Shown: positions 1 through 20,040 of the stretch, piece after piece
How the letters are laid out: every line of letters starts with the position of its first letter
Numbering within the stretch: position 1 is the first letter of the stretch
DNA from: a virus
Taxonomy: Duplodnaviria; Caudoviricetes
DNA length: 64,000 nt
Virus record (IMG/VR): IMGVR_UViG_3300017700_000721
Span: 1 to 64,000 of that record
Direction: 5' to 3' (one strand)
Position numbers and translations under genes: made by a program
The notes under the pieces: model-generated
What the model was told of the DNA's origin: nothing
Seen by the model: only the letters and a program-made list of their open reading frames with translations
Databases searched by the model: none

Positions 1-1362
1 GTTCGCCCAATCAGAGCCAATAAGGTGGGTTGCGCCTACGGCAAGGTTCACGATGGCCACTCGGTAGCCGGTCAGCTCCTGGAACACCTCGGCAAACCTA
101 GGCCAGGCTGATCCCTCAGACGAAGCGTCATTACCGGTCGGGTCGGCCATTGCCTGAAAAGCCTGGCCTGAGACAGACCACTTCATCGCCGTCGGGATGG
201 AGGGGCCGTAGCTCAAGGCTCGACCCGCACCGTTCGACTGGGACGGGAACACTCCAAACACCTTGATGGTCTGCAGTAGGTTTAGGCTGACGTTAGAGTA
301 AATGGATCCGAGGTGGAACCGGATCTCCGAGCTAAAGGTCCGGCTGAGGGTCGCATCGTCGAAGGTTGAGAAGCGACCGTCGTCGCTCACCCAGGCCCCA
401 AACCCGTCGTCCGATAGACGGTCTGTTCCGTTGGCGATCATCCCGCCCGCTGCTACATACATATAGTAGCCGACGGCCTGTCCCTTCTTGATCGGCACGT
501 CAACCTGCTCGGAGTTGGCTCCGAGCTTGATCTGGATAGGGATCCACTCGACGATCGTCTTGGTGTCACCCGATATGTCGAAGATGCCCCAGAACCCGGT
601 GCCTGTCAAGACTCCAAAGTAGTCAATCTGCCTGACACGGCCGTCGGCGACCGCGGTCCAGCCAAAAACTACCGTCTTGTTCGTGATGCCGCTTCGGGTG
701 ATCAGAGGGGTGCCGATGGGACGGCCAAGGTACTGGACCCTCTCGATCCCGCGTCGAACTTCCGTTCTCTCGACGGAGACGGCTGTCGTGGTCACCGCTT
801 GGAACGTTATGTCGAAACCCAGCTGCAGTCGCAGCGCTGCTGTGATTGCCGTCACGGTTCCGCTGGTCGATACGTCGCCTGTGAGGCGATAATATCCGAA
901 CCCGTCAGGCTTATCTGTAGCGGTGTCGAGGTACGACACCAAGTTGGGTCCGTAGAACCCTACGTATTGACCTTTGGTGACTGGGATCTCCAGTGCCAAC
1001 GTCTTCAGACCTGAGGTCAGGATAGGTACCGGCACGTTCTTCACAACTGTCATCGTCGTGCTGACCAGCTCGCCGATCCGGATAAAGCCTGTTCCTGCGG
1101 CTTTACCCCAATAACGCATTGCCCGTAGGACGCCGTCCTGCTTTATCGGAGTCATTGAGAAGTAGGTGTTAGCTCCGAAAGCCGATCCGTCGGCAAACTC
1201 CCCGTCGATCGGGCGCATGATCGATTGCATGGCCTCGAGGTTGGAAGTTACCTTCCTCGCGTCTCGATTAGCGTATCCGCGCGGTGTCCCCGACTCGGAT
1301 ATTCCGCCTCGTTCACGCCAGAGCTGCTGGCTGACGGACACGATGTCATCGGCTTCGGACAT
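1..1362 (-). CDS. SGNH/sialate O-acetylesterase-like domain protein, probably virion/tail-associated (partial, runs off left edge)
   Basis: Manually translated, absent from ORF track: ATG at 1362, open to window edge (MSEADDIVSV...VFPVQSNGAGRA...SAWPRFAEVFQELTGYRVAIVNLAVGATHL...). QSNGAG and the P-F-..-NLAVGAT block resemble SASA-type SGNH hydrolases; beta-rich N-terminus. Confidence 0.6.
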   Translation of the reverse strand, partial: MSEADDIVSVSQQLWRERGGISESGTPRGYANRDARKVTSNLEAMQSIMRPIDGEFADGSAFGANTYFSMTPIKQDGVLRAMRYWGKAAGTGFIRIGELVSTTMTVVKNVPVPILTSGLKTLALEIPVTKGQYVGFYGPNLVSYLDTATDKPDGFGYYRLTGDVSTSGTVTAITAALRLQLGFDITFQAVTTTAVSVERTEVRRGIERVQYLGRPIGTPLITRSGITNKTVVFGWTAVADGRVRQIDYFGVLTGTGFWGIFDISGDTKTIVEWIPIQIKLGANSEQVDVPIKKGQAVGYYMYVAAGGMIANGTDRLSDDGFGAWVSDDGRFSTFDDATLSRTFSSEIRFHLGSIYSNVSLNLLQTIKVFGVFPSQSNGAGRALSYGPSIPTAMKWSVSGQAFQAMADPTGNDASSEGSAWPRFAEVFQELTGYRVAIVNLAVGATHLIGSDWAN

Positions 1363-1370
1363 TTAGCTCT

Positions 1371-1429
1371 CGCGAATTGGGTTCTAGCCTTACGTTCGCA
1401 GTAAAGCTAGGGCGGGTCCCCAATTCGCG
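1371..1429. other. Intergenic stem-loop (terminator or processing site)
   Basis: CGCGAATTGGG (1371-1381) / CCCAATTCGCG (1419-1429) inverted repeat with inner CTAGC/GCTAG stem. Confidence 0.55.
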
Positions 1430-1435
1430 GTTAGT

Positions 1436-1603
1436 TTAGTCCTCACGGAGAAGCTGACTACGACCGCCCTTCAGGAGACGCTTCAGGATCGCACGGGAAC
1501 CGCGGTTGGCAGCACGGCGGGTCTGCTTATGAGGACGGCCCCAGCTACCGCCAGCACGGCGGCCGATCTTCATCACGGTGTTGTTCAAGCTACCCATTTC
1601 CAT
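1436..1603 (-). CDS. Small Arg/Lys-rich basic protein (55 aa)
   Basis: MEMGSLNNTVMKIGRRAGGSWGRPHKQTRRAANRGSRAILKRLLKGGRSQLLRED*; CGT/AAG/GGT-rich codons like the apparently highly expressed genes; below ORF-track cutoff. Confidence 0.65.
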   Translation of the reverse strand: MEMGSLNNTVMKIGRRAGGSWGRPHKQTRRAANRGSRAILKRLLKGGRSQLLRED

Positions 1604-1619
1604 TTCCCCATCTTTATAT

Positions 1620-1913
1620 AGGACCGCCCCGTTACTCGGTCTATGCTACGGAGTACAGGGTGACCAGAGCACCGCCGCGCACGACGATGATTAGTTCCCT
1701 TGGTTAGTTACCCGTTCGGGCGCATCATTGGGAGCGTCAGGTTGCTATCTTCGTTTCGGCTTCAACAATCCCCAAGGCGCTACCCCTTGGGTAATCTCAG
1801 CCTAACTCTATCGGGACTTACTTTTTTACCCCTCCTTAAGGATAGCCCGCCTGCTTTCACCAGTTACCCGGTGCTTCGTATCCAGCCTATGGACTCCCGC
1901 CGTTCTAATCTCT
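1620..1913 (-). ncRNA. Putative structured ncRNA or long structured leader (~300 nt)
   Basis: Directly downstream of consensus promoter 1920-1948; no credible ORF; hairpins CACCGG-GUAA-CUGGUG and CCCAAGG-N7-CCUUGGG; long-range GAUUAG/CUAAUC, GUUAGG/CCUGAC, GGGAG/CUCCC. Confidence 0.6.
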
Positions 1914-1919
1914 GCCCCT

Positions 1920-1948
1920 ATTATATCACAAGGTGAGCTCCTTGTCAA
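1920..1948 (-). promoter_or_regulatory. sigma70-type promoter
   Basis: TTGACA-17-TATAAT with extended TG. Confidence 0.9.
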
Positions 1949-2668: not shown

Positions 2669-3112
2669 TTAAGGAATACCTGTTATGCGTTCTTGATCAT
2701 CCTCGATTGGCCGGTAGGCGTAGTTGCCTGACTCGTAGGTTCTAGGCTCCGTTCCCTTCCCCAGGAACGCTCTCCGCCTTGACTTTCTCAGCCACTCTGT
2801 TAGACTCAGGGTCCCTGCTCCTGGTCCGCTGACGGGAACCCACTCGCCCAAGGGATGAAGGGTCCGGCGCTCCCACTGGGGCGGCAATCTCGCGACGGCG
2901 CCTTTCTGAGGCCGAGAGGTTCTCACTCGGGGTACTTGCCCCGAGAGGTCGGGCTGCTTTAACACCCACTTCCTGGCCAGGACTTTGCTCAGGAAGCTCT
3001 CCACCCTCTTTCCGTCTTTCTCGACGCTGTACACCCGGCTTTGGCTTGTTTTTACTCGTCGGATGAGGTGGCCGTTGAGAACGATCGGGGAACTCCTTGT
3101 TCCTTGCCTCAC
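2669..3112 (-). CDS. Hypothetical protein (overlaps RNase H C-terminal extension)
   Basis: 147-aa ORF, GTG start, globular-looking N-terminal half; ends just before next promoter. Confidence 0.5.
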   Translation of the reverse strand: MRQGTRSSPIVLNGHLIRRVKTSQSRVYSVEKDGKRVESFLSKVLARKWVLKQPDLSGQVPRVRTSRPQKGAVARLPPQWERRTLHPLGEWVPVSGPGAGTLSLTEWLRKSRRRAFLGKGTEPRTYESGNYAYRPIEDDQERITGIP

Positions 3113-3560
3113 GCATGGCCTCCTTCGCCATCTGGTCGCAGAGATTGTTCACACTAAACCTCGAGCCGTCTCCTGGCTGATGCCCTTTGACGTGCTTGGT
3201 TCGGAAGGTTAGGTTGAAACTCTCCGCCATCTTGAAAACGGCATCCCGGATCTCCTTGGACTCGGGGCTAAGTCTTTGCTTCGGTGTCCCGCCTACGTAG
3301 GTAAAGACTCCGAGCGCAGATAGACTGTCACACTGGACGAGGACCTCGTCGCCTACGAGGATGCCGCCTGCTTGAAGCCCTGAGTAAAGGACGTTTACGG
3401 CGGCTCGTGCCTCTGCGATGTCAGTCTTGTCTGTCTTTGCCTTTAGGACACCTTTGAACTGGAGTCCCTGCTGCATGCGATTGCTTTTAACCCAACCGCC
3501 ATATCCCACGATCCCCGTCTGTTGACAATGGGATGCGTCGGAGAAGAGCGTCACTAGCAA
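2742..3560 (-). CDS. rnhA: Ribonuclease HI
   Basis: FSDAS, AEARA, VQCDS, KHVKGH, NNLCDQMAK catalytic motifs; low-complexity tail. Confidence 0.9.
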   Translation of the reverse strand: MLVTLFSDASHCQQTGIVGYGGWVKSNRMQQGLQFKGVLKAKTDKTDIAEARAAVNVLYSGLQAGGILVGDEVLVQCDSLSALGVFTYVGGTPKQRLSPESKEIRDAVFKMAESFNLTFRTKHVKGHQPGDGSRFSVNNLCDQMAKEAMREARNKEFPDRSQRPPHPTSKNKPKPGVQRRERRKEGGELPEQSPGQEVGVKAARPLGASTPSENLSASERRRREIAAPVGAPDPSSLGRVGSRQRTRSRDPESNRVAEKVKAESVPGEGNGA

Positions 3561-20011: not shown

Positions 20012-20040
20012 ATTATAGCATGGTTTAGGATTGATGTCAA
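20012..20040 (-). promoter_or_regulatory. sigma70-type promoter (leaderless transcript)
   Basis: TTGACA-17-TATAAT. Confidence 0.9.

Follow-up and report, generated by a model that had tools for sequence, protein, structure and literature searches.

Genome setting and layout of the locus

The window analyzed here, meaning the whole stretch of 64,000 nucleotides, spans positions 1 to 64,000 of a 118,081-bp IMG/VR virus record from an uncultured phage. A 123-bp terminal repeat is present on the record, which was therefore taken to be a circular assembly. Every long open reading frame (ORF) of the window lies on the minus strand, and the replication module encodes a DNA polymerase, helicases, a ligase, a clamp loader, a UvsX-like recombinase, and a ribonucleotide reductase. 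A close relative of the whole phage was not found, either in IMG/VR, which was queried with the small basic peptide described below, RNase H, DNA polymerase, and the subgroup alignment A4, or among GenBank phages. Along the genome, the cumulative GC skew is lowest at about 3.5 kb and highest at about 49 kb, with gene orientation constant on one strand. The position of the minimum, where a 1-kb non-coding block and the RNase H gene are found, hints at a possible replication origin.

The unit under study consists of a promoter, a leader, and a peptide gene placed between the RNase H gene (2742-3560) and a tail fiber-like gene. The first of these flanking genes (minus strand; Pfam RNase_H, 3.9e-6; phrog_531, 5e-20) lies directly upstream of the 1-kb non-coding block. 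The second (1-1362, minus strand) matches the tail fiber families phrog_1858 and phrog_4201 on its C-terminal part; it starts at 1362, crosses the record start into the record's far end, and is the first in a run of very large structural-type genes.

Transcription of the unit is predicted to start from a sigma70-type consensus promoter on the minus strand (1920-1948), with a -35 element TTGACA at 1948-1943, a 17-nt spacer, an extended -10 TG at 1928-1927, and a -10 element TATAAT at 1925-1920. All 12 of 12 positions are matched in addition to the TG, bearing out the preliminary description, which had placed a perfect promoter directly after a 660-nt RNA. The transcript is predicted to begin near position 1913. 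Promoter-type sites with at most one mismatch number 12 in the window against 0.02 expected, and the genome holds 17 perfect consensus promoters, all on the coding (minus) strand. In 15 of these 17, a start codon follows about 5-35 nt past the -10 element. The only two that lack a start codon within about 35 nt are the promoter at 1948-1920 and an upstream twin at 2652-2624 (minus strand), and these two sit side by side, near the GC-skew minimum, with the RNase H gene adjacent. At four of the 17 perfect promoters just 5-6 nt separate TATAAT from the ATG (genome positions 100214, 97154, and 86394, and window position 20040, minus strand), and these four genes are probably expressed from leaderless mRNAs. 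At the remaining perfect promoters the leader measures about 15-35 nt and includes a GGAG-type Shine-Dalgarno sequence.

The twin promoter is followed by about 660 nt of ORF-free sequence (element 1950-2652) with a fold z score of -3.4. A transcript from it would read into the peptide unit, whose leader would measure 1013 nt if counted from the upstream promoter.

At the other end of the unit, between the peptide stop codon and the tail fiber-like gene, lies a compound hairpin (1369-1430, minus strand; inverted repeat I1) made up of an 11-bp outer and a 10-bp inner stem. Its folding energy is -35.5 kcal/mol (z -5.68), and none of 200 shuffles folded as well. When 1430-1369 was assessed as an intrinsic terminator, the hairpin was found to be without a U tract (tail AGAGCUAAAUG), and the terminator scan made no minus-strand call. 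It may be an RNase III-type processing site, a 3' stabilizer, or an atypical terminator separating the unit from the structural genes.

A small basic protein and its family

The gene for a basic protein of 55 aa (53 aa if translated from 1597) occupies 1436-1603 on the minus strand and is supported by its codon score, its homologues, and an AlphaFold2 model. The product contains 10 Arg and 4 Lys residues for a net charge of +11, with a core motif GRRxGGxWGxP and a C-terminal LKRLLKGGRSQL that is common to its closest relatives. Its codon score of 0.33 bit/codon is typical of the phage's genes (0.27 +/- 0.17 in the long ones), and the other five frames at the ORF score lower, four of the five negatively. 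All 10 Arg codons are CGY (CGT or CGC), against 44% CGY genome-wide. The Shine-Dalgarno sequence is weak (GGGGA). The Arg/Lys-rich 55-aa ORF reported after the leader is thus present at 1603-1436. It had also been described as missed by gene calling, which was mistaken, as public records for the contig already include the 53-aa product (P0012), which begins at the third codon. Judged by codon usage and by its homologues, the 55-codon ORF is a genuine gene and a conserved one.

The ORF contains an exact 11-nt direct repeat (1510-1520 and 1552-1562) that encodes the R-R-A steps GRRAG and TRRAA. One copy falls in each predicted helix of the peptide, as if a basic half-unit might have been duplicated internally. 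Nucleotides 1906-1896, at the 5' end of the leader, are complementary to this repeat at 10 of 11 positions; an 11-nt complementarity between the 5' end of the leader and the ORF (I5) was judged to be within chance.

An exhaustive HMMER (phmmer) search of 1.84 billion representatives returned 11 matches, the best with an E value of 6.6e-12 (P0001); seven of the 11 were small proteins of 42-77 aa and 35-63% identity. Profile searching extended these to 63 small homologue clusters of 37-105 aa, all annotated as "hypothetical," with which similarity covers the full core, and 11 longer, fused forms were also found. DNA scans added five IMG/VR loci, 56 metagenome loci, and one GTDB locus. These 62 loci, which fall into 31 clusters at 85% identity, together with the 63 small clusters, affirm that the peptide is conserved in other phages. 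The GTDB locus was on the only contig found among 185,579 prokaryote species genomes, which marks the family as one of phages and not of cells or common prophages. One of the 63 small clusters is from a cultured phage: EVB91_089 (QIG70645.1) of Rhizobium phage RHph_I1_18.

The family core reads GRRxAGxWGxP...R..A....R, or in fuller form K-K-[IL]-G-R-R-K-A-G-[ST]-[WY]-G-[KR]-P ... [KR]-x-x-A-x-x-[AG]-x-R. Across 80 sequences R15 and R37 are invariant, and G14, R16, A18, G19, G22, and A32 are kept in at least 90%. The protein of the window carries G14, R15, R16, G19, W/Y21, G22, P24, A32, and R37. Its closest homologue locus (L009) is 68% identical and has the same LKR[IL]LKGGRS tail; the C-terminal LKRLLKGGRSQL tail is limited to a small subgroup (alignment A4), and further closest relatives are clusters P0013, P0014, and P0016. 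Profile searches of Pfam, PHROG, NCBIfam, and the PDB gave no match to the family (25 members were searched at E <= 1 against Pfam, NCBIfam, and the PDB), and matches in the ESM Atlas were "hypothetical protein" clusters only. The peptide is thus a fresh member of an existing phage protein family, unnamed and uncharacterized, of about 40-55-aa peptides found almost exclusively in phage contigs.

AlphaFold2, run with the family alignment, placed helices at residues 5-17 and 26-45 and a loop at 18-25 (mean pLDDT 77; core 86-89). The model predicts that the peptide folds as a basic helix-loop-helix hairpin with a Gly/Trp/Pro loop. Foldseek found no match at E <= 0.001 in the PDB or BFVD.

Large phage proteins of several architectures also contain the module (P0072-P0076, with the motif near residue 910, and P0068-P0071, P0078, L034, L058, L017, and L062). 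In one fused lineage of about 1000-1090 aa, with the motif at about residue 910, the N-terminal 280 residues match phrog_13484, "virion structural protein." Acidic linkers flank the module in this lineage (e.g., ...AASE | KKLGRRK...) and would suit its release by prohead protease.

In three divergent phage lineages the peptide gene is found within tRNA arrays. It lies in an array of 19 tRNAs at L007 (4995-5117), among 17 tRNAs and a permuted tmRNA at L018 (2154-2282), and directly after two tRNAs at L011 (491-613). At L018 the end of the peptide ORF and the start of a tRNA-Tyr gene share about 10 nt. Three of 31 lineages is more than we would expect of a gene placed at random, but phage tRNA arrays often contain small ORFs, and so we treat this association as a lead only. 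Elsewhere the neighbors of the homologues vary (metallophosphoesterase, sigma factor, peptide deformylase, MazG, and primase), and a search for conserved gene neighbors found none; these inconsistent neighborhoods therefore give no functional pointer. From the net +11 charge, the predicted fold, and the fusion and tRNA contexts, we infer that the module may be a general nucleic acid-binding (or acidic surface-binding) hairpin, and in some phages it may be packaged with DNA. The proposal of an arginine-rich RNA-binding peptide accordingly stands in so far as this is a basic two-helix protein of a kind that could bind nucleic acid, but a cognate RNA for it is unsupported.

The leader and the nature of the unit

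The untranslated leader of about 309 nt (1604-1913, minus strand) has stops in all frames and a negative codon score. It contains each of the helices named when it was described as a multibranch RNA of about 300 nt: a GUAA-capped hairpin, CACCGG-GUAA-CUGGUG, at 1873-1858; a 7-bp hairpin, CCCAAGG/CCUUGGG, at 1791-1771; and the pairings GUUAGG/CCUGAC and GAUUAG/CUAAUC. That description holds for the helices and for the ORF-free stretch, but not for the folding, which does not go beyond chance. The minimum free energy of the leader was -100 kcal/mol against -97.9 +/- 5.0 in dinucleotide shuffles (z -0.43), with 31 of 100 shuffles folding at least as well; z scores ran from -1.6 to +1.9 in sliding 100-nt windows and stood at +0.46 around the peptide start codon. 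The leader thus failed the generic test for structured RNA, folding energy below that of shuffled controls, both globally and locally. Since it folds no better than its shuffles, the helices found by hand are what any GC-rich 310-mer offers, and such helices in GC-rich sequence are a poor basis for calling an RNA ornate.

Searches for known RNAs and for relatives of the leader were also negative. Rfam 15 cmscan (4227 models) gave no match at the gathering score across the 64 kb. At E <= 10 in 1300-2800 it gave only two chance-level matches, both outside the leader; raiA was absent at either setting, contrary to the suggestion that a 10-mer resembled the raiA motif. ARAGORN at default settings and the Rfam tRNA model found no tRNA-like element in the leader, and a relaxed-threshold ARAGORN match on the plus strand (1639-1733) was rejected as noise, being one of 209 spurious calls genome-wide. 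No iterons or repeats were found in 1300-2800, and no terminator or strong structure between 1913 and 1604. The leader had no blastn match among 50,697 phage records, and an intragenomic search matched promoter-like pieces alone. A search of all six frames with HMM A3, made in case the leader was a second peptide gene that had decayed, found nothing. In mid-leader there is a perfect AAGGAGG (1831-1837, minus strand), but neither ATG, GTG, nor TTG occurs in the 20 nt that follow; the site may be for ribosome stand-by or stabilization, or be due to chance.

Since the start codon comes within about 35 nt at 15 of the 17 consensus promoters, a 309-nt leader is exceptional for this phage, and it may have a function of its own that is invisible to single-sequence analysis. 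What remains odd on the RNA side is that two of the 17 consensus promoters are directed into sequence without a gene start.

We compared the region 1380-2720 with the 62 homologue loci by blastn and nhmmer, and only the coding part was matched. Gaps upstream of the homologues are mostly below 170 nt, and some homologues are without a leader. At L009 the gap between the preceding gene and the peptide gene is 41 nt. At L006 the promoter, Shine-Dalgarno sequence, and ATG all fall inside about 50 nt, and in Rhizobium phage RHph_I1_18 EVB91_089 begins 3 nt after the previous gene and ends 35 nt before the primase gene. Within the L009 gap, a TTGACT-N17-TAGTAT site (2968-3003) ends 6 nt before the peptide ATG, which may be another leaderless case. 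The same unrelated metagenomic phage, which carries the closest homologue, has a near-perfect TTGACA-N16-TATAAT promoter at 2517-2545. L009 shares nothing else with the genome studied here, which indicates that the small peptide gene moves on its own. Co-occurrence of peptide and RNA in related phages had been proposed as the check on an RNA with a cognate peptide, acting as a ribonucleoprotein or antiterminator. Leader similarity was found at 0 of the 62 loci, the closest relative with its 41-nt gap included; with leaders mostly short as well, a conserved RNA-plus-peptide module is unsupported.

We conclude with moderate confidence that this is a protein-coding transcription unit, conserved and functional in its small protein rather than in its RNA. 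Transcription would start near 1913 from a consensus host-type promoter, and the first ~309 nt of the transcript would be left untranslated, specific to this phage and without detectable excess structure. Translation would then give a protein of 53-55 aa and net charge +11, with two helices and a Gly/Trp/Pro loop, and the very stable hairpin would close or process the unit in front of the tail fiber gene. The long leader would most likely tune expression or stability of the mRNA, or else belong to the larger 1-kb non-coding block, and it is probably not a dedicated RNA partner of the peptide.

Other explanations of the leader were weighed against this one. It could be a functionless spacer, either a long-decayed gene or a recombination scar between modules, with the promoter just serving the peptide gene; this fits a leader without conservation, structure signal, or coding signal and a peptide gene found in very different contexts in other phages. 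We nevertheless think it unlikely, given that phage genomes are compact, that start codons come 5-35 nt after 15 of the 17 consensus promoters here, and that no remnant of a peptide copy or other ORF is detectable in the leader. The pair of promoters, the sole two of the consensus type without an adjacent start codon, could instead serve a replication origin, where transcripts running from 2652 to 1604 would form R-loops that prime or activate replication, as with ColE1 RNA II, the T7 primary origin, and T4 oriF, with the peptide gene merely downstream. The GC-skew extremes, which arise despite one-strand genes, the G-rich RNA strand (plus-strand skew -0.36 at 1801-1900), and the RNase H gene directly upstream make a transcription-primed origin possible. 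The skew minimum is broad (~2-12 kb) and partly made by the non-coding block itself, however, and neither iterons, an AT-rich unwinding element, nor repeats were found there, so that an origin seems quite unlikely. It is similarly doubtful, in our judgment, that the unit yields a free trans-acting RNA. Such an RNA, 0.3 kb on its own or forming the 3' end of a 1-kb species, would be released by processing and would act on a host RNA-binding protein, nuclease, or defense system in the manner of a decoy or sponge. A perfect extended -10 promoter would make such a transcript very abundant, and the missing nearby start codon is exceptional in the genome, but the interval from 1913 to 1604 has no terminator or strong structure with which to define it, no Rfam match, no excess stability, no repeats of the ToxI or CRISPR kind, and no homologues in the 50,697 phage records or the 62 homologue loci.

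Two further readings give the peptide an RNA partner. In one, the peptide binds a hairpin of its own leader or of the 660-nt RNA, either for lambda N-like antitermination past 1430-1369 or in a ribonucleoprotein. The layout does resemble PL-nutL-N, with a promoter, a GNRA-capped hairpin at about +40, an Arg-rich protein, and a hairpin before late-type genes; three divergent phages have the peptide gene among tRNA genes, and similarity searches would overlook a hairpin partner of 15 nt. Against this, the leader is common to none of the 62 homologue loci and folds as its shuffles do, upstream gaps are just 3-50 nt in the closest relatives, the lambda N-like QTRR stretch is not a conserved feature of the family, and the peptide is without a Pfam match. 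The presence of the module inside large proteins, which in one lineage carry a virion structural protein domain, also misfits a dedicated antiterminator, and we regard this reading as highly improbable. In the other, the peptide and phage stable RNAs are dedicated partners, and the 0.3-kb and 0.7-kb transcripts with the peptide form an undescribed phage ribonucleoprotein. It draws on the peptide gene being in tRNA/tmRNA arrays of three phages and, here, behind 1 kb of promoter-driven non-coding RNA, and we consider it very unlikely.

What had been supposed to be a missed micro-ORF becomes a member of a defined, widespread, and uncharacterized phage protein family with a clear motif and a predicted fold. 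The occurrence of the module in large phage proteins, some with a virion structural protein domain, and in tRNA arrays leads to two hypotheses, that of a packaged DNA-binding peptide and that of an RNA-associated peptide.

Comparison with known systems

Like lambda N with boxB, the locus combines a small Arg-rich protein driven by an early promoter with a GNRA-type hairpin in the leader and a strong hairpin before the downstream genes. It differs in that the protein has no sequence or profile match (no Pfam match at E <= 1) and in that no upstream, nut-like element is shared among the 62 homologue loci. Lambda N is a single arginine-rich helix, whereas the core of the peptide family is a Gly/Trp/Pro loop between two helices, and the family, unlike lambda N, has fused forms in large proteins, which in one lineage include a virion structural protein domain. 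With the raiA motif, ROOL, GOLLD, and HEARO RNAs, large structured RNAs of phages and bacteria, the leader shares the combination of a strong promoter and a long transcript free of ORFs, here in a phage genome, but none of these was matched by cmscan (gathering score; E <= 10), and the leader is without excess folding energy.

The small basic ribosomal proteins bL34, bTHX, and bS21, which some phages encode, are similar to the peptide in size and charge. By eye, the pattern G-x-x-[IV]L-x-R...KG-R-x-x-L resembles the C-terminus of bL34. Pfam Ribosomal_L34 was unmatched in 25 members at E <= 1, and there was no PDB ribosomal chain at E <= 10; lacking a profile match, the resemblance is treated as compositional. 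Likenesses to bTHX and RMF, also seen by eye, had no profile backing and were set aside.

The T4 internal proteins IPI-III and the adenovirus mu/VII-type peptides are basic, virion-packaged, DNA-associated proteins. The peptide is like them in being small and highly basic, in being embedded in large proteins with acidic linkers in some phages, and, in the window, in having its gene directly before the tail fiber genes. No homology to them was detected, the peptide has no capsid-targeting sequence, and many of its homologues are in early-type or tRNA regions rather than head modules.

The nearest counterparts are EVB91_089 of Rhizobium phage RHph_I1_18 and the metagenomic clusters P0001-P0067, which, like the protein of the window, are of phage origin, about 40-58 aa long, and marked by the motif GRRKAGSWGKPHK...R..ANRATR, with 64% identity in the core. 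EVB91_089 sits among small genes just upstream of the DNA primase gene and has no long leader, whereas the copy in the window has a 309-nt leader, its own consensus promoter, and the C-terminal LKRLLKGGRSQL tail. As a member from a cultured phage, EVB91_089 offers a setting in which the family could be studied.
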